Position numbers and translations under genes: made by a program
Part shown: positions 29,626 through 38,662 of the stretch, piece by piece
How the letters are laid out: each line of letters opens with the position of its first letter
Numbering within the stretch: the first letter of the stretch is position 1
The notes under the pieces: generated by a model
Database searches by the model: none
What the model saw: only the letters and a program-made list of their open reading frames with translations
What the model was told of the DNA's origin: nothing
Virus record (IMG/VR): IMGVR_UViG_651324045_000004
Location: 1 to 64,000 of that record
Source: a virus
DNA length: 64,000 nucleotides
Direction: 5' to 3' (one strand)

Positions 29626-29930
29626 TGTACGAACCCAAAGGGCGTTACCGTCCGTTTATGACCGCAGCGATGCTCACCTGTGGCAAAACACAAGCTCAGA
29701 TTGCAAAAGAAGTTGGATTTGAGAACGCTAACAACATTTCTCTCATCAAATCTGGCCGTGCTCATCTTTCGTTAGACAAGGTCATCCCATTCGCGAGAGC
29801 TGTTGGTGCGCCGCCAGACGATTTTATGATGATGTACTTATCCGAGAGATTTCCCGAAATATATGAATTTGTTAAAAAAATAAAGAATGAAAATGATGCT
29901 CTGAAGAGCAAGTTAGGCATTACTGATTGA
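29626..29930 (+). CDS. XRE/Cro-C1-type helix-turn-helix transcriptional regulator
   Basis: HTH segment CGKTQAQIAKEVGFENANNISLIKSGR. Start set at ATG 29626 (MYEPKG) with an AAGG SD, not the ORF-track start inside the repeat. Confidence 0.6.
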
Positions 29931-30954
29931 TCTTACATGTTTCAATTAAGAATTCAGAGTATGCTGACATTGCCTCGGACATCCGGTCAAGATAGTCGTG
30001 TCTGTCATAGACGCGATCTATTCCCTCAAGACTGTGGTTCATGATTTTACGAGCCACGTCTTGCTCTACACCGAGTCGAGAGAGTGTACTTCTGGCCGTC
30101 CTTCGTAAATCTCTGATTTCGAAGGGTGCCGGAAGGTTATCGGAAAGATAACCTCTACTCATAATTCTTCTTGATGCCTGAGCTATCAGAACCTTAGATG
30201 CAGGCTTCATTGCATTCTTTGGGGAGGGAACCAGCCAATCGCTGTTCCCGGCTGCGGCCATCATTTTATTAATGCACAGCTTCATTATGGGGCTAATGGG
30301 TAGTGAATGTTCACGACCAGACTTATTCCTACTACCCTGATTCCATACATCATTATTGAGATCGAATTCAGCTCGTTTAGCCCGGAGCACTTCATCCGGC
30401 CGTCTGGCTGAGCAGAGCACGAAACGCGCGGCCCAACGCGTGCTCTCTGAAACATCGGCAAAGTCCCACATGTGCCAAAATTTTTCCAGCTCATCATCCG
30501 ACAACACACGCTCCCGCGGTCTTGGCTTCAGTCCACCGGCTACTTTGTTAAGAGACATCGCTCCAAGTGGGGAAGTCTCGATCACACCCTGGAACTCACA
30601 CCACCCAAGGAACTGTTTTAAAACAGAAAAAACGCGCCGGCTTTGTACTAACTTGCCATCCAACACCAGGGCATTAATTAGTCTGTTAACTGTGAGGCGG
30701 TTGATGTCCGAAACTTTTTTGTTGCCGATCGCCGGCATTGCGTGAACGAGAATACAGTGAACACCTAGCTCTGGGCGCCGGCGCGTCACAAGGAGTGATA
30801 AGCGCGTGAAAAACATAAAGGCTTCACTGAATTTCGAATCGGCATCCATGGTCATCATTTGCGAACCGGTCATGGCTTGGCAGCGCTGGAGATATTGAAC
30901 TGTTTCAGCAGAACAATTTTCCAAAGCTTTATCGATTTCGAACGAATTTAACAT
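29920..30954 (-). CDS. int: Tyrosine recombinase / phage integrase (P4-like family)
   Basis: C-terminal catalytic residues (R...HDLRRT...RVYDRHDY). Start chosen at MLNSFEIDKA, preceded by GGAGG. The ORF-track N-terminal extension is unlikely. Confidence 0.9.
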   Translation of the reverse strand: MLNSFEIDKALENCSAETVQYLQRCQAMTGSQMMTMDADSKFSEAFMFFTRLSLLVTRRRPELGVHCILVHAMPAIGNKKVSDINRLTVNRLINALVLDGKLVQSRRVFSVLKQFLGWCEFQGVIETSPLGAMSLNKVAGGLKPRPRERVLSDDELEKFWHMWDFADVSESTRWAARFVLCSARRPDEVLRAKRAEFDLNNDVWNQGSRNKSGREHSLPISPIMKLCINKMMAAAGNSDWLVPSPKNAMKPASKVLIAQASRRIMSRGYLSDNLPAPFEIRDLRRTARSTLSRLGVEQDVARKIMNHSLEGIDRVYDRHDYLDRMSEAMSAYSEFLIETCKINQ

Positions 30955-31038
30955 CGCTGCCTCCATGTAACTGTATGCATATACAGTATTTAACGGTATT
31001 TTAGTTATAAGGTCAACCAAAGATAACTGGTTTTTTAC

Positions 31039-31071
31039 TGTGATTCCATACCTATAGAGTATGGAATCACA
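31039..31071. promoter_or_regulatory. Perfect 13-bp-arm palindrome TGTGATTCCATAC-ctataga-GTATGGAATCACA upstream of int. A second palindrome, ACTGTATGCATATACAGT, lies at 30970-30987.
   Basis: Seen directly. The position between the divergent int and cargo genes suggests an operator or recombination (att core-type) site. Confidence 0.5.
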
Positions 31072-31131
31072 AAAGGGCGATTTGAATAAATTTAGAGGCT
31101 GTAGCACAATGGTTGTACATAACATTGGAGA

Positions 31132-31722
31132 ATGCATATGGGCCTTGTGTCACCCATTGAAGAAGATGTTTATCTTGAGGAATCGGGATTCCGACGGAAA
31201 AAGTTTGTCTATGACAAGCGCGTTCATCATAGTTATATCTTTGTTGCCGGCGGTGAGGTTTACACCGTAGTTTTCGGGAGCATTAAAGATGAGAAGACGT
31301 TTCAGAAAATTGGCTACAGCTTAGAGCCTGGCATGGCTTTCCCTCACAATGGGATGTCAGAGGTTTACTTCGATATTTGGATTGATCGTGAGTCTTTCGG
31401 AGATTTCCGGCACGTAAAATTCAAAGGGTTGGCGGGTGGTGTTGTATTGGAACAAGTAGCTTTAGCAATGCTTCAACATTATCAAACCTTTGATATTGGA
31501 GGGTTTGTTTTCCAAGCTGCTTCCGGTGGCGTAGCCGATATTGATAGGAAAACTTCCCTCGAAGAGACATACGATTATATTCTTGGGTTAAAACACGAAC
31601 AACGTTATAATAAGAAAACAGGATTACCTAAAGGTAAACCCAGGAAGCTCCTTCCAGACTTCCTGAAAGTTTACAAAGATGACTCAACCGGGAGGGCTTG
31701 TTATGCCGTTACGTCGCAATAA
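31132..31722 (+). CDS. hypothetical protein (integrase-adjacent cargo)
   Basis: 196-aa plus-strand ORF. Confidence 0.45.
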   Translation: MHMGLVSPIEEDVYLEESGFRRKKFVYDKRVHHSYIFVAGGEVYTVVFGSIKDEKTFQKIGYSLEPGMAFPHNGMSEVYFDIWIDRESFGDFRHVKFKGLAGGVVLEQVALAMLQHYQTFDIGGFVFQAASGGVADIDRKTSLEETYDYILGLKHEQRYNKKTGLPKGKPRKLLPDFLKVYKDDSTGRACYAVTSQ

Positions 31723-32910: not shown

Positions 32911-33180
32911 TCAAAAAGTGGTCGGTTTTGCGATGCTGCGGATCACGGCCATAAAGCCTTTCTGCAGGTCAGTTTTACCGATAGCCAGCCAGCGTTTATC
33001 CGGCAGCTGAAGTGAGTTTTTGGCAAACTCCGCACGTTCCAGTTTCTCGACGAACTCACCCACTTTCTGGGCCAGCTCTTTGCCTTCGTTCATCAGAGCG
33101 ATTTCTTCGGCCGACAGGTCGCGATAGCCTTTAATTTTGGTGTGCTGATCTTTCACGGCACCATCTCCACAATTACCCAA
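32911..33180 (-). CDS. hypothetical protein
   Basis: 89-aa ORF. Confidence 0.4.
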   Translation of the reverse strand: MGNCGDGAVKDQHTKIKGYRDLSAEEIALMNEGKELAQKVGEFVEKLERAEFAKNSLQLPDKRWLAIGKTDLQKGFMAVIRSIAKPTTF

Positions 33181-33698
33181 TCCTCGGCCAGCATGTCAGT
33201 CTGGGATGCCAGCCATGGCACAAATTTGCCGTCAGCTGTTTTCATACCAATCCAGGGCGCCAGCTCCAGATCGCGAGCAATGCCGCAAGCGACGTCGTAT
33301 TGTTTGCCGGACACCATGCGCAAGAACATACCTTTGCCGTTCCAACCTTTGCGAGCTACGCGATGGCCATCTTTCAGCATCTCGATTGCGATGCCAAAAG
33401 ATGCACCTACCCTGGCGGCGTGAATAGTGGTTTCGACTGACAAATAGCCCGATTCAAACGGCCCTTTTGGCGAGTAGGACTCATAACCGTTTTCATAGCG
33501 GACGAAATATCCACCAACTTGAGGCTGGTGCTTGTCGAGATAAGTCTGATCTACTTCGACTTTTGCCACATGCTTGCGGAAGGATAACAGCATTGTCTGC
33601 CCCTCGATTTTCGCAATCTCAGCAGCTTCCACGATTTTAATGCTTTGGTACTGCGGTAATTTAACTTTTGTCATTTCAATATCCCTATTGATAGGCAT
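33153..33698 (-). CDS. hypothetical phage protein (DGHRVARKGWNGKG motif, possibly a DUF2829-like domain)
   Basis: 181-aa ORF directly downstream of phoH. Confidence 0.45.
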   Translation of the reverse strand: MPINRDIEMTKVKLPQYQSIKIVEAAEIAKIEGQTMLLSFRKHVAKVEVDQTYLDKHQPQVGGYFVRYENGYESYSPKGPFESGYLSVETTIHAARVGASFGIAIEMLKDGHRVARKGWNGKGMFLRMVSGKQYDVACGIARDLELAPWIGMKTADGKFVPWLASQTDMLAEDWVIVEMVP

Positions 33699-34515
33699 TT
33701 AAAGCCACTTTGCAGAGTTCAGAGCGGACGCAATCGTCGGCTTCAAACTCAATCAACCCAACGTGCGCGTTTGGTTTAAAGCGGCGCAGTGCGTCGGATA
33801 GCCCGGACTCTTTATTACCAGGCAGGTCACACTGCGTCACATCGCCGTTCACGATAACCGTAACGTTCTCACCCATGCGGGTCAGGAACATCTTCATCTG
33901 TGACGGTGTAACGTTTTGCGCTTCATCCAGAATAACCACTGCGTTTTCGAACGTCCGGCCACGCATGTAAGCGAACGGGGCGATTTCTACTTTGGCAATC
34001 TCTGGCTTGAGACAGTATTCGAGGAAGGATGCGCCCAGACGCTTCTGGAGAACGTCATAGACGGGGCGGAAGTATGGGGCGAACTTCTCACCCACATCTC
34101 CCGGAAGGAAGCCCAGATCTTCGTCAGCTTGCAATACGGGGCGAGTGACGATGATTTTGCGGACGTCTTTATCCAACAGCTTCTGCGCGGCGACAGCCGT
34201 GGCAAGGAACGTTTTGCCGCAGCCGGCTTCACCGGTGGCGAACGTCAGAGGCTTGTTTTCGATGCTGATAAGATAATGCGCCTGAGCCTCGTTACGAGCC
34301 TCAACTGGCGTATTGTCTCGCTTTGGTCGTGGGGTCTGAGCGTCGGTCAGCTCATCGACAATAACGTAATCAACACGACGGCCGCGGAACGCACGATTCT
34401 CTTTTACTGCTTTACGCGCTACCTTACGCGCATGTTTGCGTGATGTACCCATTTTGATTCCTTTCAAATGGTTAGGTGTCGCAATAAATATAACTGCATT
34501 GGATAAGTAAATCAT
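33685..34515 (-). CDS. phoH: PhoH-like ATPase
   Basis: Walker A GEAGCGKTFLA and PhoH core VILDEAQNVTPSQMKMFLTRMGENVTVIVNGDVTQCDL. Confidence 0.85.
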   Translation of the reverse strand: MIYLSNAVIFIATPNHLKGIKMGTSRKHARKVARKAVKENRAFRGRRVDYVIVDELTDAQTPRPKRDNTPVEARNEAQAHYLISIENKPLTFATGEAGCGKTFLATAVAAQKLLDKDVRKIIVTRPVLQADEDLGFLPGDVGEKFAPYFRPVYDVLQKRLGASFLEYCLKPEIAKVEIAPFAYMRGRTFENAVVILDEAQNVTPSQMKMFLTRMGENVTVIVNGDVTQCDLPGNKESGLSDALRRFKPNAHVGLIEFEADDCVRSELCKVALNAYQ

Positions 34516-34681
34516 TACTTATTTTTGAAATAACAAAAAGGAGCCGCGAGGCTCCTTTGATTATTTGCGCTAAAAGTGTCTATCGTGATGCTCAATGGTC
34601 GCTGTGGGTCGAAGTACAGCTTAAAGGCCAATGTCGCCATCAGTCTTTAAGCTGTAGCCTCCGAAGAGGCTACGGCCACAA

Positions 34682-35293
34682 TCAGTTCTTACCGGCGTTA
34701 ACCACAACACCTGCACGACCGGCATCAGCTTTGGCGATTTCGAGGCGGGTTTCGCGCTCTGCGGTAATCTGTCCACGCAGCTCTGCAACTTGCGCTTCCA
34801 GATCGGAGATGCGTTGGTTTTTAGCAGTAGCCTGGGCTTTGTGCTCCGCCAGCTCAACTTTATGCTGGGATACCAGATCGCGGTTCTCAGCGCCAAATTT
34901 AGCAGCAGCAGCCTGATAACCAGCTTCACGCGCTTCGGATACTGCGTACTCGTTGTCGGTTTTGGCCGCGACCAGGTCGGAGTTTAGTGCATCCAGATCA
35001 GCGTGAGTGATAACGGCATAACCGCGTGCTTTCATCAGCTCGGCCAGAACCTTGTCTTCGTTTTCGATTACACGCAGACGCAGCTGGGCTTTGGATTCGC
35101 GCTCGGAGGCAGCGATCTGGTTTTCGATATCAGCCAACTGGCCCTGCTTAAATTCGATTTCTTCAGTCAGAGTTACGGTTGACTGAGACAGAGCGGCCAG
35201 ATCAGCGAACAGCTTTTGGCCGTCGGCAACAACTTTAACCAGTGCTTTAGTAGAACGCTCAGCTACGGTAATAATCTTTTTGACTTCAGACAT
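34682..35293 (-). CDS. hypothetical coiled-coil protein
   Basis: 203 aa, A/E/Q-rich heptad-like sequence. Conserved RBS at the start. Confidence 0.5.
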   Translation of the reverse strand: MSEVKKIITVAERSTKALVKVVADGQKLFADLAALSQSTVTLTEEIEFKQGQLADIENQIAASERESKAQLRLRVIENEDKVLAELMKARGYAVITHADLDALNSDLVAAKTDNEYAVSEAREAGYQAAAAKFGAENRDLVSQHKVELAEHKAQATAKNQRISDLEAQVAELRGQITAERETRLEIAKADAGRAGVVVNAGKN

Positions 35294-35493
35294 GTGTTTT
35301 CTCTTTGTAGTTTATTTGTATGGTTCGCAGCGTTACTTTTCTGACCGTACAGTCTGAATTTCACGCTACTTGCACTTTACGTTAGTGCCAGACGAGGCTT
35401 GTGGCTCGGGCCTAATGGCTGTTTATGCGGTTGATGGCCGCACCATTTTGGCCTCGACACTAAGAGATGTATGGAATCACATCATCTTAGATT

Positions 35494-35569
35494 TGGTGCC
35501 CAAGCAGGTGTTGAACCTGCATCATCGGACTCAGCATCCTCTCGACTTACCGTTTTGTCGCATTGGGCA
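35494..35569 (-). tRNA. tRNA-like element 1: 7-bp acceptor stem (TGCCCAA/TTGGGCA), D-stem CGAC/GTCG, T-arm GCAGG-TTCAACA-CCTGC. The anticodon arm is imperfect.
   Basis: Folded by hand. The anticodon stem has mismatches, so this may be a degenerate or unusual tRNA. Confidence 0.35.
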
Positions 35570-35605
35570 TTCAATCTGAAGGACTCTCGAAAAAGCCCTT
35601 TAGGT

Positions 35606-35688
35606 TGGCGCAAACAAGCGGAATCGAACCACTCTCTACCGGATAAGACGTCTTCCTCGGTCGCAGTCAACCAGACTGCTTTGTTTGC
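35606..35688 (-). tRNA. tRNA-like element 2: perfect acceptor (GCAAACA/TGTTTGC) plus GCCA 3' end, D-arm GCAG-TCTGGTTGA-CTGC, T-arm AGTGG-TTCGATT-CCGCT. The central region contains the palindrome GAAGACGTCTT instead of a clean anticodon arm.
   Basis: Folded by hand. About 83 nt, so it could be a class-II-like or aberrant tRNA. Confidence 0.35.
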
Positions 35689-36094
35689 TTGCACCTCTTT
35701 TATCGTTAAGAGGAAACGGACTGAGCCTGTCACCAAACAGCGGAGGCATATTTGATGGCCTGGAGTAAAGATCGAGGCGATGAAAAAACCTCTTCAATCG
35801 ACTAACATCTCAGTCTGCCGGTGTTCGCCACCTCCGGCTGGGCTATGGCCTACATATCAAGCTCTAAACGAGTCTATCAATAGCAGAAGAAAGTCCGATC
35901 GTTAGCACGCACTTTCTCAAAACCTTCTGCACGCTTTGAGAAAGGCGCTGCGTCGCAATTTCAAATTAACCCAAGATGAAATGAGACATTAAGTAATCAC
36001 ACACGACGCAGCTGTTTGGGCGGTCAGTTGCGGACTGAAACCGGGATATGGTTATTGAAAATGCTCCTAACCACCCAAACAGCTGAAACGTGGG

Positions 36095-36125
36095 AGAGTG
36101 ACGCGGGAATCGAACCCGCAATCCT
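36095..36125 (-). other. Isolated tRNA 3'-half-like element: perfect T-arm GCGGG-TTCGATT-CCCGC plus acceptor-like 3' strand. No matching 5' half was found.
   Basis: Seen directly. It resembles the tRNA 3' fragment typical of att sites or tRNA remnants. Confidence 0.3.
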
Positions 36126-36534
36126 CAGCCTCAAATATGCTATTTGCATTTCACACATCAGGCATCGGAATAAACCTTTAAGTCACCAGACTTCGCTCGC
36201 CGACGCTATGCACAGCTAATCGACAAACTAAAAGGCCATCACCCATGTTCGCAGAGACTCGCCGTCTGACTCTATCGCGTGGTTAAGGGTACGTGGGTCA
36301 GTATCGCCTATTCACCAGCAAGTCTCTGCTATCCATTAGTAATCACACCGGATCAGTGCGCCGAATTTTTTAATGAGGAATCGGAAGACCTCACTGACTT
36401 ATAGGCTGTTAAGCCGCCATCAGAACTACATCATCGTTTGCATTTACTTTGTTGGTCAGTTTCTAAAAAACCGCAAAGCCGCTTAACGTCGAAAACGAGT
36501 TAATCTTAGTGAAAACTTATAAATAAGTAAACAC

Positions 36535-36786
36535 TTATTTATCTTTGTTTTTATTTTTTTTGACGGTTACGATGTAACCCTTTGTTGTTACTGTGTAACT
36601 TCTATCGTCTCGAATCCCATCCCAGCGGAGAGATGTTAAGCTAATCAACCTCGATACGACGTTTTCCATCATGTCGTCATTAACGAAAAACTTAACCGTC
36701 ACCATATCGACGATCCGAGATACAGCTCTCGTCACGGTGTAAAAAACACAAACTAGAATAAATGCGAGCAAAATATAGTCTGTCAT
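36535..36786 (-). CDS. hypothetical membrane protein
   Basis: 83 aa with an N-terminal TM helix. Confidence 0.4.
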   Translation of the reverse strand: MTDYILLAFILVCVFYTVTRAVSRIVDMVTVKFFVNDDMMENVVSRLISLTSLRWDGIRDDRSYTVTTKGYIVTVKKNKNKDK

Positions 36787-36937
36787 TTAACATTCCTTAT
36801 GTCAGTTGAGTGAACCACTCGATATACGCGCCGCCCAAAGCAAATGACGCCAGTTTTAATTTCCTGCTTAATCAAATCGTGGGTAACAACTACGCCGAGT
36901 AGAAACCCGGCGATAGCTCCCATCAAAAGATATGGGA

Positions 36938-37153
36938 TCAACTAAAAGCTCCTGCGTTGACAAGTTCAGCCAGAACAACCCTGCCTCTGGTCGTCAGCTG
37001 AAAATTCTTTTGCTTCCCTTCAGGGGAGATATTTTCAACGAATCCCATCCGCTCCAGTTTTGCACGAGTCTTCGGGCGCCAGTGTTCGTAGAATCTCTCC
37101 CACTGGCTTATTTCTCGAAGCGTGCTTTTTTCCAACTTACTTAACTGGATCAT
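36938..37153 (-). CDS. small putative winged-helix DNA-binding protein
   Basis: 71 aa, basic, with helix-rich sequence. Confidence 0.35.
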   Translation of the reverse strand: MIQLSKLEKSTLREISQWERFYEHWRPKTRAKLERMGFVENISPEGKQKNFQLTTRGRVVLAELVNAGAFS

Positions 37154-37337
37154 CTACACCTCCCACAGCTAATCCCTTTGCCTCAGAGGTCACATCGACG
37201 ATTCGGTAGATTCGACCTCTGAACTCCATAACCCCAGCCTTGATACTGTCCTTCTTTATCGACACAAAAAACATTCCACCCAAAACAAAGCCCAGCAAAA
37301 AGGTCGACAGACCAAAGCCAATAAGGTCACTTATCAT
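37137..37337 (-). CDS. small membrane protein
   Basis: 66 aa with a TM segment. Stop/start coupling with the neighbouring genes. Confidence 0.35.
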   Translation of the reverse strand: MISDLIGFGLSTFLLGFVLGGMFFVSIKKDSIKAGVMEFRGRIYRIVDVTSEAKGLAVGGVDDPVK

Positions 37338-38662
37338 TCCTTATCCCCTATGCGGTCTTCAGTGTCACGCAGACAGGACGGCCATTTCAGACGAGGGTGA
37401 CGCAAACTGCCGTCTGGCGTCTCTTCGTGGGCATTGACCTTCACGATGCGCCCGATGTACTTGTCCTGGTTGTTCCAGATCTCATCCAGGTACATGTGCT
37501 TAATGCCCGATGCCTCGACCTCAACACCGTTCTCCAGGCGAATAGTTACCGAGCCGAGAGTGTGGGCGAATGCCGAATCCTCTTTACCTGGCTTGAAGCC
37601 GATAATCTCACCGTCAGCTTCGATCTCGTCCTTCATCTTCCACCAGCTCTTGGTGCGCTTAAACTCGTAAACGGAGAACGGATCTTTCGCCATATAGCCT
37701 TCTTCGTTGGCGTCCAGAGCCGCCATGAACAAGTCGATAAACTCTTTATGGCTATGTACTAACTGGAAGTCATGCAAACGCACGTCGCCTTTGTACTGAC
37801 TGTCCGGGCGGCTCTTCCAGTTTGTCCAGCTGCACAAGTCGATATGGCGGTCTTTTAACTTGCGGCCTTCTTTCTTGTACTCCTTGGTTTTGGCAATGGC
37901 TTTCCATTCCGGCAAGAAGTAATCGAAGACGTGGAATACGGCGCCAATAGCTGATACGCCTTTTTTACGCAGTGCTGAGATGGAATCGTTGAACGAACCG
38001 GCCGTCGCTTCGCCATCAAAGAAGATGTGCTTATGCGGCGTCATACGCGCCAAATCTAATACCGCTGGCTTCAGATGGTCGAGAGACGTTACCGGGTTGC
38101 CGGTACGAGACAGGAAGTTAACCTCTGCCTCGTCAACGATGACTTCGGCAATGACGCGCATCCCGTCCAGCTTGAGGCTGGCAATCATCGGGAACTTGGC
38201 TTTCGGGTTTTCCTTGAACGGGTACTTGTCGCCTTTTTCTTTGTACGACGTCGCCAGCTGAACCTCGAACACCGGAATCGGGTTGTCGAAGATTTTATTG
38301 CACAGGCTAATACCGATGCCGGCCTTCGGATCTTTAATCAGGAAGCGGCGGAACACGTCTTGCCCTTCCTCTGTCATGTCTGAAATAGCCTGCTCCACCA
38401 TCGCAATAGCGCTGTTACCAGTGAGCTTACGGCTGGCCAAGGAGTTGAGAATATCGATAGCGTCTTCATCAGAGATTTTATTCTCAAGCGCAGGCTCCGC
38501 GACGCTGTATTTCTTCACCCCGAATCGGATGAATGGGTTAAGCATCAGTGACACCATGCTTTGTTCGAATGCGTCCAGCTCAGCCAGGGCTACTTTCTTG
38601 GCATTGGTTCCCATAGCTTTAATGGCGTCTAGTTTTCCACGCAGAGCAATCAACTTTTCCAT
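37334..38662 (-). CDS. ATP-dependent DNA ligase
   Basis: Adenylation motif I ASLKLDGMR (KxDG) and further NTase/OB-fold motifs. 442 aa. Confidence 0.85.
   Translation of the reverse strand: MEKLIALRGKLDAIKAMGTNAKKVALAELDAFEQSMVSLMLNPFIRFGVKKYSVAEPALENKISDEDAIDILNSLASRKLTGNSAIAMVEQAISDMTEEGQDVFRRFLIKDPKAGIGISLCNKIFDNPIPVFEVQLATSYKEKGDKYPFKENPKAKFPMIASLKLDGMRVIAEVIVDEAEVNFLSRTGNPVTSLDHLKPAVLDLARMTPHKHIFFDGEATAGSFNDSISALRKKGVSAIGAVFHVFDYFLPEWKAIAKTKEYKKEGRKLKDRHIDLCSWTNWKSRPDSQYKGDVRLHDFQLVHSHKEFIDLFMAALDANEEGYMAKDPFSVYEFKRTKSWWKMKDEIEADGEIIGFKPGKEDSAFAHTLGSVTIRLENGVEVEASGIKHMYLDEIWNNQDKYIGRIVKVNAHEETPDGSLRHPRLKWPSCLRDTEDRIGDKE

Follow-up and report, generated by a model that had tools for sequence, protein, structure and literature searches.

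What does a 1.2-kb stretch without protein-coding genes contribute to this element, and why does it carry three tRNA-like modules? The window (the whole 64,000 nucleotides analysed) gives a 99.9% match to non-mobilizable Klebsiella plasmids of ~108 kb, and therefore appears to derive from an extrachromosomal phage-plasmid. The first-pass annotation described positions 35294-36534 as noncoding, and this holds: the block is flanked by minus-strand open reading frames that end at 35293 and start at 36535. That reading overlooked a tmRNA-like tag module at 36496-36331. With very nearly even confidence, we read the block as a minus-strand ncRNA operon of a Klebsiella phage-plasmid, in which unit 1 would be a tmRNA-derived RNA with host tmRNA as its docking partner, and the mimics of tRNA in modules C, E and F would be maintained. 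In the direction of transcription, the block contains:

36503..36531, minus strand: putative sigma-70 promoter
36496-36331, minus strand: tag RNA (unit 1), ~165 nt, structured, with a resume context, a tag frame, a hairpin and two pseudoknots
36251..36329, minus strand: module B, a hairpin with closing stem GCAGAGACU/AGUCUCUGC
36091..36244, minus strand: module C (previously the third element), an acceptor-closed tRNA-like module of ~150 nt
35948..36085, minus strand: module D, two long hairpins
35606..35688, minus strand: module E (previously the second element), a cloverleaf whose 14-nt anticodon loop holds the palindrome AAGACGUCUU
35495..35569, minus strand: module F (previously the first element), a marginal tRNA-Gln(CUG)-like cloverleaf
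35294..35480, minus strand: structured leader, near-invariant in alignment, 5' of a 203-aa open reading frame (34682-35293)

The promoter and module B were read from the sequence, and module D from the sequence together with an alignment of relatives. The putative promoter comprises a -35 hexamer TTTACT (36531-36526), a 17-nt spacer and a -10 hexamer TAAGAT (36508-36503), with G36496 lying 7 nt 3' of the -10; relatives L005, L006 and L007 keep both hexamers around a variable spacer. The promoter scan tool was silent on 36503-36531 because the hexamers match 8 of 12 consensus positions and it requires 9.

The segment 36496-36331 specifies a predicted RNA of tmRNA origin, with no tRNA-like domain of its own. 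Its parts are:

36454..36496, minus strand: 5' domain, GUUUUCGACGUUAAGCGGCUUUGCGGUUUUUUAGAAACUGACC, antisense to host tmRNA nt 57-104
36442..36453, minus strand: A-rich linker of 12 nt, ending in AAAU and placing U(-5) and A(-4) before the resume codon
36409..36441, minus strand: tag reading frame, GCA AAC GAT GAT GTA GTT CTG ATG GCG GCT TAA, translated as ANDDVVLMAA*
36394..36423, minus strand: helix-5-like hairpin, CUGA...GGCU UAAC AGCC...UCAG, with the stop codon in its loop
36361..36393, minus strand: pseudoknot 'PK2', stem UGAGG/CCUCA, loop CCGA with a downstream UCGG
36331..36358, minus strand: pseudoknot 'PK3', stem CACU/GGUG, loop AUCC with a GGAU that follows the linker UGUGAUUA(A/C)UAA

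Of 94 variants, 88 have an A-rich linker of 12 nt and 6 have one of 13 nt; every variant carries A(-4), and 92 carry U(-5). The corresponding features of E. coli tmRNA are U85/A86 and a 12-nt spacing after PK1 (PMC2481249), and both the length of the phage linker and its U(-5)/A(-4) agree with these requirements. The frame that follows has 10 codons and a stop in every family instance (158/158), and specifies 17 related peptides that fit the pattern A-N-[DE]-[DEN]-x-x-L-x-[AV]-A. The commonest of these peptides is encoded by 8 nucleotide variants, which differ solely at synonymous sites or in the stop codon, and 14 of 23 single-nucleotide neighbour pairs across the frame are synonymous. These comparisons show a pattern of variation that resembles that of a translated peptide. 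Ordinary translation from an overlapping AUG was rejected, as in the family sequences that frame runs for 5-9 codons with variable content.

Downstream of the tag, pairing is preserved across 94 distinct sequences: 17 pairs of the module undergo two-sided changes, and 245 covarying cells are found versus 75 +/- 17 in shuffles, with slid controls far lower. Pair 85/108 of the helix-5-like hairpin is AU in 47 sequences and GC in 47, and helix 3 of the alignment is 96.5% paired. The stem of 'PK2' covaries (CG:40/UA:40, GC:60/AU:33, AU:73/GC:21), as does its second stem (GC:63/AU:17, AU:69/GC:10). In 'PK3', two-sided changes occur in all four second-stem pairs (4/4) and in two first-stem pairs; the linker is conserved, and length variants stay complementary, for example UCCCUGA/UCAGGGA and GGCGGGAG/CUCCCGCC.

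The tag RNA shares much with standard tmRNA: a resume codon in a U85/A86-type context; a short frame with its stop; and, after the tag, helix 5 and pseudoknots, two rather than three. A complete molecule of either the standard or the permuted type was nonetheless rejected, on three grounds. The first is that no 5' acceptor strand lies upstream in SSU5-like, P1, Erwinia or N4-like contexts. In the window, the putative promoter abuts the position 5' of 36496 where such a strand would sit, and in the SSU5-like, P1 and Erwinia contexts promoters or terminators directly adjoin GUUUUCG. The acceptor piece of a permuted tmRNA (T-arm, CCA) is likewise absent 5' of the tag module, where a protein open reading frame is found instead. 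The second is that ARAGORN at default settings calls no tmRNA in any tag-module context. The third is that Rfam scores stay below gathering thresholds: RF00023 gives 7.5-17 bits (gathering score 47), and RF04321 (tmRNA_permuted) gives 39 bits over a wide stretch and 28 bits over a narrow one (gathering score 47). The RF04321 score stems from the tag region, with the tag consensus of the model aligned onto 36409-36441, and its tRNA-domain stems align to A/U runs alone.

What, then, could bring this template to a ribosome? The first 43 nt of the tag RNA can form 38 bp with nt 57-104 of K. pneumoniae/E. coli tmRNA, in a predicted duplex that takes in, on the host side, one strand of PK1 (the 3' one), then A86 and the resume codon, and finally codons 2-5 of the tag. 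RNAduplex assigns -43.4 kcal/mol to the pairing of 36454-36496 with E. coli and K. pneumoniae tmRNA, versus -28.6 +/- 2.9 kcal/mol for dinucleotide shuffles (n=400), none of which reaches the observed energy (0/400; z about -5). For three variants of the 5' domain the energies are -43.4, -45.6 and -38.0 kcal/mol (z -5.2 to -6.0; 0/400 shuffles each), and all 42 distinct family variants target tmRNA nt 56-105. Among random 46-nt segments taken from the 64-kb window, 3.7% pair with tmRNA at -40 kcal/mol or below; the significance of the match therefore rests on the shuffles, which are matched in composition, and on the location of the target. With the tmRNAs of Proteus and Yersinia, which have differing tag codons, the energy weakens by 9-15 kcal/mol, toward the shuffled range. 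When the tag RNA and tmRNA are cofolded, the gain is 16.7 kcal/mol. Pairing of the 5' domain with the rest of the tag RNA yields -19.5 kcal/mol, and the other modules of the block show no comparable complementarity to this domain (z -0.4 to +1.7). Complementarity to tmRNA is in sum above chance and target-specific, as expected of the trans-acting antisense class proposed here.

K. pneumoniae tmRNA equals that of E. coli over the first 130 nt, target included. Several observations qualify this match. The sole informative position is offered by Salmonella, whose GAAACC makes one mismatch with the phage GUUUUC (-38.9 kcal/mol). The phage sequence is invariant despite this difference, and host-phage covariation at that position was sought and not seen. 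The complementarity may also be inherited in part from tmRNA, because the 5' region of host tmRNA is itself weakly complementary to the same segment, at -23 kcal/mol only. Alternatively, the 5' domain could adopt an internal PK1-like fold through GUUUU/AGAAAC and CUUUG/CAAAG; in the alignment CUUUG/CAAAG is 67% paired, and GUUUU/AGAAAC never varies. The possibility that the 5' domain invades helix 2 of the host by pairing with its 3' strand was discarded, since at -13 to -18 kcal/mol it does no better than the host's own strand, and long-range pairings from whole-module RNAduplex runs were uninformative because their energies are inflated.

Taken together, these features suggest a mechanism, to which we assign a little less than even confidence: the tag RNA pairs with host tmRNA, masks its resume codon and causes the rescue machinery to add a phage-specified tag to stalled proteins. 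In this scheme, docking of the tag RNA on host tmRNA would put the duplex in place of PK1 and bury A86 of the host, together with its resume codon and codons 2-5 of its tag. At the end of the duplex that lies closest to helix 2 and the tRNA-like domain, the linker and resume codon of the phage would emerge, and the host alanyl-tRNA-like domain, with SmpB, would bring this template to ribosomes that have stalled. Their products would be tagged with ANDDVVLMAA rather than ANDENYALAA. The net result would be a parasitic two-piece tmRNA assembled in trans, with one piece from the host and one from the phage. For the phage, possible benefits are an altered fate of the tagged proteins or control of the load on ClpXP/SspB. 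A point against the scheme is that RNase III might merely cleave a duplex of ~38 bp.

The same antisense evidence, including the 42 of 42 variants and the shuffles, would also fit a pure anti-tmRNA inhibitor or sponge that blocks or cleaves its target, with the tag region as an untranslated leftover of an ancestral tmRNA. A predicted duplex over A86 and the resume codon should by itself inactivate tmRNA (PMC2481249). We consider simple inhibition unlikely. A leftover frame would not be expected to retain 10 codons and a stop in all 158 copies, nor to vary synonymously or conservatively while the overlapping AUG frame is scrambled, and antisense action needs neither a 12-nt linker with U(-5)A(-4) nor a stop-codon hairpin followed by two covarying pseudoknots.

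If the phage template is used, the tRNA-like domain might instead come from the phage itself. Tag RNA and module C, or its counterparts, would then form a self-contained two-piece tmRNA that is independent of host tmRNA. The arrangement of the modules invites this reading: the order of tag module, closed hairpin and tRNA-like module recurs, with an acceptor-closed third member in SSU5-like, lambdoid, T1-like, N4-like and Ackermannviridae contexts, and module B occupies the position of the 'X' hairpins that lie 3' of the tag module in other phages. The T-arm of module C matches the tmRNA model, and ARAGORN at 95% thresholds calls loci L030 and L033 as low-scoring standard tmRNAs, although in both the 5' strand close by is at least as good a closing partner for the tRNA-like module. 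We nevertheless find a self-contained molecule improbable. Module C was rejected as a partner of the tag RNA, the complementarity between them being insignificant (z -0.4), and G3-U70 is absent from its natural register. A tether between the X-hairpin loop and the insert in the tRNA-like scaffold further downstream, both of them variable, was also discarded, as the two assort independently and cognate energies equal non-cognate ones (-28.35 versus -28.28). Finally, relative L005 retains the tag module with module C lost, and P1 and the N4-like S5 have a tag module without an adjoining acceptor-closed module; in P1, ordinary tRNA genes lie ~280 nt downstream.

Among the known systems that resemble trans-assembly on host tmRNA are the two-piece (circularly permuted) tmRNAs of Alpha- and Betaproteobacteria and cyanobacteria (RF04321, RF01849-51), in which template and tRNA-like domain likewise sit on separate base-paired RNAs, as proposed here. 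The resume context and tag consensus are common to both, the tag region being what RF04321 aligns at 39 bits. In the known systems, however, both pieces come from one gene, and the coding piece has a 5' acceptor strand and pairs via the acceptor stem and helix 2. The tag RNA has no acceptor strand, is phage-encoded, and has as its proposed partner the mRNA-like region of an intact host tmRNA. Its likeness to E. coli SsrA (RF00023) extends over the A-rich linker, the U85/A86 equivalents, the resume codon (GCA), a tag of 10 residues that starts AN[DE]... and closes with AA or VA, the stop in the helix-5 loop and the downstream pseudoknots, with sequence similarity to E. coli tmRNA nt 13-35 and to the tag region. 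It differs from SsrA in lacking the acceptor, D-analogue and T-arm, in having two downstream pseudoknots only, and in the replacement of PK1 by a domain antisense to host PK1 and the start of the tag.

Mycobacteriophage DS6A supplies the opposite half: a CDS-less tmRNA that consists of the tRNA domain only and interferes with host trans-translation (PMC11915505), whereas the tag RNA is a template without a tRNA domain. Module C resembles the DS6A type in having a T-arm and acceptor with no usable tag frame, and differs from it in lacking G3-U70 in the natural register. A further parallel concerns regulation by pairing. Phages and prophages encode base-pairing sRNAs and anti-sRNAs, among them DicF, and also AgvB and AsxR of EHEC prophages. 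Like these, the tag RNA is a short phage RNA whose 5' end is complementary to an abundant host RNA, and the P1 copy adjoins a 'dicF-like region'. It departs from them in its target, tmRNA, and in the fusion of its antisense domain to a replacement coding template, a combination of which we know no other case.

The remaining structured parts of the block include the tRNA-like modules that had first drawn attention. Their T-arms are present as described, on the minus strand: GCAGG-TTCAACA-CCTGC; AGTGG-TTCGATT-CCGCT, followed by an acceptor 3' strand and GCCA; and GCGGG-TTCGATT-CCCGC at 36119-36103. The perfect 7-bp acceptor stems (UGCCCAA/UUGGGCA and GCAAACA/UGUUUGC) and the palindrome AAGACGTCTT were found as well. 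The statement that none of the modules makes a clean cloverleaf applies in part: E and F fold as cloverleaves in alignments with relatives, and their anticodon loops are indeed abnormal. The third element, taken for a mere tRNA 3' half, has a 5' acceptor strand after all, GGGUGAU at 36244-36238, which pairs with GUCACUC at 36102-36096. Between this strand and the T-arm lies an insert of ~118 nt, the 3' end reads GUCACUC-U-CCCA, and the fold has a z of -2.7. All three modules share a 7-bp acceptor stacked on a 5-bp T-stem with a T-loop, and in none of them is the anticodon arm a 5-bp stem that carries a loop of 7 nt with U33.

Are these modules decoders? The idea that they are working or decaying tRNAs (for example Gln-CUG and an intron-containing Lys or Phe) that supply phage codons draws on the prediction programs. 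ARAGORN reports a single tRNA at default settings, tRNA-Gln(CTG) at 35495-35569(-), and relaxed settings add 35606-35688(-), read as Lys(ctt) with a 7-nt 'intron' or as Phe(gaa). With Rfam, module F reaches 29.6 bits for tRNA in E-value mode against a gathering score of 29, is unlisted in the gathering-threshold search, and has a counterpart in relative L007 at 36.2 bits; module E gives no tRNA match (its best match is tRNA-Sec, 24.2 bits against a gathering score of 47), nor does module C, which has a local match to the T-arm of the tmRNA model (17 bits). Module E encodes its GCCA 3' end; module F has a T-loop UUCAACA and no encoded CCA. These points do not make a decoder convincing, and we give that explanation little credence. 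Module F has G33 in place of the near-universal U33, with an anticodon loop of 5 nt on a 4-bp stem (or 7 nt with G33), and in close relatives L004, L005 and L008 an unrelated, longer tRNA-like module takes its place. In module E the loop is 14 nt long and the palindrome within it is conserved, and an intron-type reading would need the splicing of short introns, of which, to our knowledge, there is no case in bacteria.

Decay is also disfavoured, because pairing is kept through compensatory changes. In module F, pair 2/72 of the consensus fold is GC in two sequences, AU in two and GU in two, and G2-C71 becomes A2-U71 in relatives. Module E has compensatory pairs 3/77 and 28/51 in its consensus fold; in relatives, A3-U70 becomes G3-C70 and A27-U43 becomes G27-C43, and the palindrome changes from GACGUC to GGCGCC. 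In module C, both partners of a pair differ together between phage Det7 and the window, in the T-stem (G49-C65 to U-A) as well as in the acceptor. Such changes in acceptor, T and anticodon stems of related phage-plasmids support the remaining suggestion of the first-pass annotation, tRNA-like ncRNAs. The 3' 64 nt of module C find a ~80% match in 201 phage records, including Ackermannviridae tRNA clusters; in L005, a deletion runs from a few nucleotides 5' of the module C 5' acceptor strand into the 3' tail.

A separate proposal held that the modules are tRNA-derived att remnants for a tyrosine recombinase. Many integrases target tRNA or tmRNA 3' ends, and a Phage_integrase-family open reading frame does lie ~5 kb from the block, at 29920-31137 (-) rather than at the 29920-30954 first given. 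A remnant of this kind should share ~15-45 nt exactly with the 3' end of a tRNA or tmRNA gene of the host. The comparison covered E. coli tRNA 3' ends and the first 130 nt of K. pneumoniae tmRNA, and no E. coli tRNA 3' end matched 36085-36140 (best ~84% over 43 nt, E >= 0.3). Module C, moreover, is complete in both strands of its acceptor and has a counterpart in phages of the Ackermannviridae, and the element matches extrachromosomal plasmids of ~108 kb. With E. coli tRNA genes as the reference, an att origin is extremely improbable.

Judged by these compensatory changes, modules C, E and F are maintained structures, neither decay products nor att scars. Known tRNA-like processing marks include mitochondrial tRNA punctuation and MALAT1 mascRNA, and the small stable RNAs found in T4 tRNA clusters are a further parallel. 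Here too, the acceptor and T arms are intact and the anticodon arm is free to vary, and the modules sit between other RNAs of one transcription unit. They would then act not as decoders or att scars, but as marks for RNase P and 3'-end processing and as stabilising ends, dividing the operon into separate RNAs. The conserved palindromic loop of module E sets it apart and suggests an additional role.

The tag module extends far beyond this element. Matches to its ~165 nt occur in 680 phage records, in 603 plasmids and, among 5426 E. coli genomes, in 656; the phages inspected include P1, lambdoid, N4-like, T1-like and Ackermannviridae types, and the module mostly lies 5' of phage tRNA genes on the same strand. 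None of the rows inspected, P1 included, annotates an RNA there; in P1 the module has the 'dicF-like region' on one side and trnA on the other, and the ban promoters, which C1 controls, lie upstream of it. Full-text literature searches found no description of a template-only tag RNA, and the supplement of the tmRNA database paper gives no phage names. Hundreds of phage, prophage and plasmid records harbour an unannotated structured RNA, for which P1, with the module in its C1-controlled ban operon, is a ready model system.

Trans-translation is the chief bacterial pathway of ribosome rescue and protein quality control, and several phages depend on it for reasons still debated. If the proposed docking is correct, re-programming of the tag, beyond the supply or block of tmRNA, would be a new form of viral takeover of host translation and natural proof that a tmRNA template works in trans. 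It could account for the retention of the same 165-nt sequence by such different phages, and would amount to a programmable tag delivered by a small RNA. The 'odd tRNAs' beside the tag module are probably not decoders, which bears on phage tRNA counts and on arguments from codon usage.

The two other structured regions of the block also recur elsewhere. Module D is formed by the hairpins CAGCUGUUUGGGUGG...CCGCCCAAACAGCUG (36085-36009) and CUGCGUCG...CGACGCAG (36011-35948), and a similar AGCUGUUUGGG hairpin lies directly 5' of the tag module in the Ackermannviridae phage L002. Within the structured leader, positions 35356-35408 find a ~94% match in distant pHCM2-type plasmids.

The block at 35294-36534 carries a series of small structured RNA modules on the minus strand. 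The block is noncoding, as the first-pass annotation held, with no long ORFs inside. That inventory overlooked the first module, the tag module.

36496-36331, minus strand: tag module (tag RNA), of which the first 43 nt (36496-36454) are the 5' domain
36329-36251, minus strand: module B, hairpin
36244-36091, minus strand: module C, tRNA-like
36085-35948, minus strand: module D, hairpins
35688-35606, minus strand: module E, tRNA-like
35569-35495, minus strand: module F, tRNA-like

The Rfam permuted-tmRNA model matched 36409-36558 at 39 bits (gathering threshold 47), nearly all of the score coming from the tag consensus. The tag sequence reads ...AAGUAAAU GCA AAC GAU GAU GUA GUU CUG AUG GCG GCU UAA, encoding ANDDVVLMAA and a stop. 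Matches to the ~165-nt segment at ~78-88% identity occur in 680 phage records, 603 plasmids and 656 of 5426 complete E. coli genomes, where the copies lie mostly on P1-like plasmids and otherwise in lambdoid prophages, flanked by Q and the holin gene. Among GTDB species representatives the module is found in six genomes: five Enterobacterales and one doubtful MAG. The module is therefore a mobile-DNA element and not a host ssrA gene. In P1 (NC_005856.1, 68887-69065; 1201-1379 of the fetched locus L168) it encodes ANDDLMMVAA and is unannotated. There it directly follows the annotated 'dicF-like region' and terminator, ahead of trnA/trnT and downstream of the C1-controlled ban promoters P1ban/P2ban. 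The rows inspected carry no RNA annotation of the module, and some bear 'hypothetical protein'. No earlier description was found in full-text searches covering few subscription journals, in the tmRNA database paper or in the P1 annotation, so one may still exist elsewhere. As computed results, the tag-RNA family and its tag frame, structure and tmRNA complementarity are all solid.

The tag template is fused to a domain complementary to the first pseudoknot (PK1) and resume region of host tmRNA. The first 43 nt of the tag RNA are complementary to nt 57-104 of E. coli K-12 tmRNA, as follows.

Pairing of the 5' domain with host tmRNA
Phage nt 1-7 with host nt 98-104: tag codons GAC GAA AAC
Phage nt 9-12 with host nt 93-96
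Phage nt 15-20 with host nt 86-91: A86, the -1 triplet, resume-codon G90 and C91
Phage nt 21-33 with host nt 68-80: PK1 3' strand and A-run
Phage nt 34-35 with host nt 65-66
Phage nt 38-43 with host nt 57-62

In the window this duplex has 38 bp and an energy of -43.4 kcal/mol; dinucleotide shuffles of the 5' domain average -28.6 +/- 2.9 and none of 400 reach the observed value. Among random windows of the 64-kb sequence, taken without matching, 3.7% are at -40 or below. The same control gives z -5.2 for a lambdoid variant and z -6.0 for an N4-like one. All 42 distinct 5' domains choose tmRNA nt 56-105 (mean -40.6). Host tmRNA genes were taken from PLSDB 'plasmid' records of 4-5 Mb, evidently chromosomes (CP125156.1, NZ_OL790812.1, NZ_AP026896.1 and others). 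K. pneumoniae tmRNA is identical to that of E. coli over the first 130 nt, target included. Pairing with the tmRNAs of Proteus and Yersinia, which have other tag codons, is weaker by 9-15 kcal/mol and so nearer the shuffled range; in Yersinia the preferred site shifts elsewhere. On the same target the host tmRNA's own 5' region reaches only -23 kcal/mol, and the 5' domain reaches -19.5 on the tag RNA's own template. Alone, the 5' domain is almost unstructured (-5.3); the tag module and tmRNA are 16.7 kcal/mol more stable when cofolded than when folded separately. The variants GCGA to GCGG or GUGG, and CUUUG to UUAUG, read from the alignment, retain pairing with the fixed host sequence. The host's GACGAAAAC is absent from every phage tag, so the tag RNA avoids targeting itself. 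Salmonella GAAACC has no matching change in the invariant GUUUUC, and descent from tmRNA may account for some of the complementarity.

The tag RNA is a tmRNA-type template without a tRNA domain, selected both as coding frame and as structure. Two IMG/VR pattern scans and the fetched loci yielded 158 instances (94 distinct sequences), and in every instance exactly ten codons run from GCA to the stop. The 17 related peptides include ANDDVVLMAA, ANDDLMMVAA, ANEEMYLAVA, ANDEQFLAVA and ANDDLMLMAA. ANDDVVLMAA exists in eight nucleotide versions, whose differences are confined to synonymous sites and the stop codon; of 23 single-nucleotide neighbour pairs, 14 are synonymous. The GCA frame lacks a start codon; an overlapping AUG frame varies in both length and content. 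The main rival explanation, that the tag RNA simply inhibits tmRNA, leaves this coding-type conservation unexplained. The stop codon lies inside a hairpin loop and is followed by two H-type pseudoknots. Across the 94 sequences, both-sided changes occur in 17 of 35 proposed pairs, with 245 covarying cells where shuffles give 75 +/- 17, and 86% of cells are paired against 36-58% with partners slid. The linker before the resume codon is 12 nt in 88 of the 94 and 13 nt in six, with A(-4) invariant and U(-5) nearly so. In E. coli tmRNA the resume codon follows PK1 by 12 nt, frame choice requires A86 (position -4) with a contribution from U85, and the pseudoknots and tag sequence are replaceable (PMC2481249).

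Together, these features suggest how the tag RNA might act. It would dock on host tmRNA, the duplex taking the place of PK1 and hiding both the host resume codon and the nucleotides that set the host frame. The phage strand would exit beside host nt 57, near helix 2, which would place the phage resume codon 12 nt from a helical element, like native tmRNA. Stalled ribosomes would then receive the phage template from the host tRNA-like domain and SmpB, and would add the phage tag. We infer such a tag swap with a confidence just short of an even call. Y7 and LAA, features that matter for degradation through ClpX and SspB recognition, are lost from the phage tags, which retain AN[DE] and a C-terminal AA or VA. 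The fate of tagged proteins may therefore change, which is speculation.

Conservation begins sharply at GUUUUCG. Upstream in the window lies a conserved putative -35/-10 pair (TTTACT, 17 nt, TAAGAT), too weak a match for the promoter scan tool, with G36496 seven nt downstream. An intrinsic terminator precedes the module in P1 and an Erwinia prophage, and tR' plus a hairpin in lambdoid prophages. ARAGORN at default called no tmRNA in any tag-module context. A frequent order is tag module, closed hairpin and acceptor-closed tRNA-like module, represented here by modules B and C. No acceptor-closed module adjoins the tag module in P1 or the N4-like phage S5, ordinary tRNA genes lying ~280 nt downstream in P1, and the relative L005 has lost module C. 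Tethering of the downstream modules to the tag RNA was rejected, complementarity to it being absent, as was tethering via hairpin and scaffold, the variable parts of which assort independently. At 95% thresholds ARAGORN calls low-scoring standard tmRNAs in L030 and L033 (IMG/VR lambdoid and T1-like contigs), relying on a second acceptor 5' strand copy, UGUGGCA or CGUGGUG, that precedes the tag module. The T1-like context has a similar copy, UGUGGUG, within strong promoter-like sequence (TTGACA, 17 nt, TAGATT). Some lineages may therefore have a cis tRNA domain.

In lambdoid, T1-like and Erwinia prophage contexts (L003 3130-3370, L162, L163, L081, L083 and other related loci), the tag module is followed by two constant scaffolds with hypervariable cargo: an 'X' hairpin, AACAGGUAAGAGCA...UGCUCUUUCCGUUGUG, and a tRNA-like RNA, UGUGGUG AA UGCGC AGGCUGAU GCGC, insert, GCCGG AGAUCAGCG CCGGC CACCACA. 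In the tRNA-like RNA, D-loop GCUGAU is Watson-Crick complementary to T-loop AUCAGC; its inserts are wholly different from phage to phage and assort independently of those X loops. Salmonella phage Det7 (L068, 1313-1401) carries an annotated 'pseudo tRNA with possible 15-bp intron' (48.7 bits as tRNA, 22-nt anticodon loop), whose loop sequence GAGAACAAGGUGCCUG recurs in the insert of the lambdoid tRNA-like scaffold.

All three T-arms described in the first-pass annotation are present on the minus strand, in modules C, E and F. ARAGORN at default calls a single gene across the whole window, module F, as tRNA-Gln(CTG) at 35495-35569. Relaxed thresholds make E a tRNA with a 7-nt intron. Rfam gives no match at gathering thresholds; in E-value mode, F scores 29.6 bits with the tRNA model, and the top matches are tRNA-Sec for E (24.2 bits) and tmRNA for the T-arm of C (17 bits). 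Aligned with relatives (five or six variants per element, from related plasmids and IMG/VR contigs), E and F do fold as cloverleaves. Module E has a 7-bp acceptor, 5-bp D stem, 5-bp anticodon stem, 14-nt loop, T-arm and GCCA, with both sides changed at pairs 3/70 and 27/43. Module F has a 4-bp anticodon stem and 5-nt loop (alternatively 7 nt with G33), and its pair 2/71 is GC, AU or GU. Module C is no 3' half: GGGUGAU (36244-36238) pairs with GUCACUC (36102-36096), and a 163-nt stretch is more stably folded than its shuffles (z -2.7). In L005 the deletion begins a few nt before the 5' acceptor strand and ends inside the 3' tail. In the Det7 homologue the first T-stem pair is altered on both sides, as are two acceptor pairs, pairing being kept partly via G-U wobbles. 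The modules are therefore real and kept by selection.

Normal decoding is beyond their anticodon regions. The modules may be processing or end-protection marks (RNase P, 3' trimming, CCA addition): their acceptor and T arms are intact, their anticodon arms odd or variable, and they lie inside one transcription unit. That the tag module usually directly precedes same-strand phage tRNA genes fits this too. Module C could instead be a tRNA-domain-only tmRNA mimic resembling the form mentioned for DS6A (PMC11915505); G3-U70 is absent from it in the natural register. The proposal of att remnants fails on comparison of 36085-36140 with E. coli tRNA 3' ends. The palindrome in the module E loop (35647-35656, minus strand) survives a double change, AAGACGUCUU to AGGCGCCU, in relatives; it is unable to form a hairpin, which hints at dimerisation of the RNA or a symmetric site for a protein, on the strength of a single evolutionary event. 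In module D, the motif GUGUGAUUACUUAAUG (36004-35988, minus strand) repeats the conserved linker GGUGUGAUUACUAAUGG (36351-36335) of PK3, the tag module's second pseudoknot.

The stretch 34600-37400 is 99.9% identical to ~108 kb non-mobilizable Klebsiella pneumoniae plasmids, and shares short conserved pieces with Salmonella Typhi pHCM2, whose plasmid type is a phage-plasmid akin to phage SSU5. The phage collection yielded no close relative. The bounding ORFs, 34682-35293 and 36535-36786, matched no Pfam family. The neighbouring genes are:

37334-38662, minus strand: ATP-dependent DNA ligase
33685-34515, minus strand: PhoH-like ATPase, ~1-2 kb downstream of the RNA block
33153-33698, minus strand: Tad2-like anti-Thoeris protein, ~1-2 kb downstream of the RNA block
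29920-31137, minus strand: tyrosine recombinase

Given the same-strand Tad2-like and PhoH-like genes, the RNA operon may belong to an anti-defence or host-takeover region. The leader of the 203-aa ORF (35294-35480, minus strand) is nearly invariant among relatives, and its 53-nt core (35356-35408) keeps ~94% identity in Salmonella and Enterobacter plasmids of the distant pHCM2 type. This suggests an operator or a regulatory RNA. The weak Rfam match here (FTHFS, 24.8 bits against a threshold of 72.6) is not meaningful. In relatives matched across the whole 2.8-kb query that surrounds the block (NZ_CP084809.1, NZ_CP057316.1), the match is annotated with an HNH endonuclease gene or an IS5 transposase. 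The relatives L004, L005 and L008 have a longer tRNA-like module in place of module F, and L008, from K. michiganensis, is without the tag module and modules B and C entirely.
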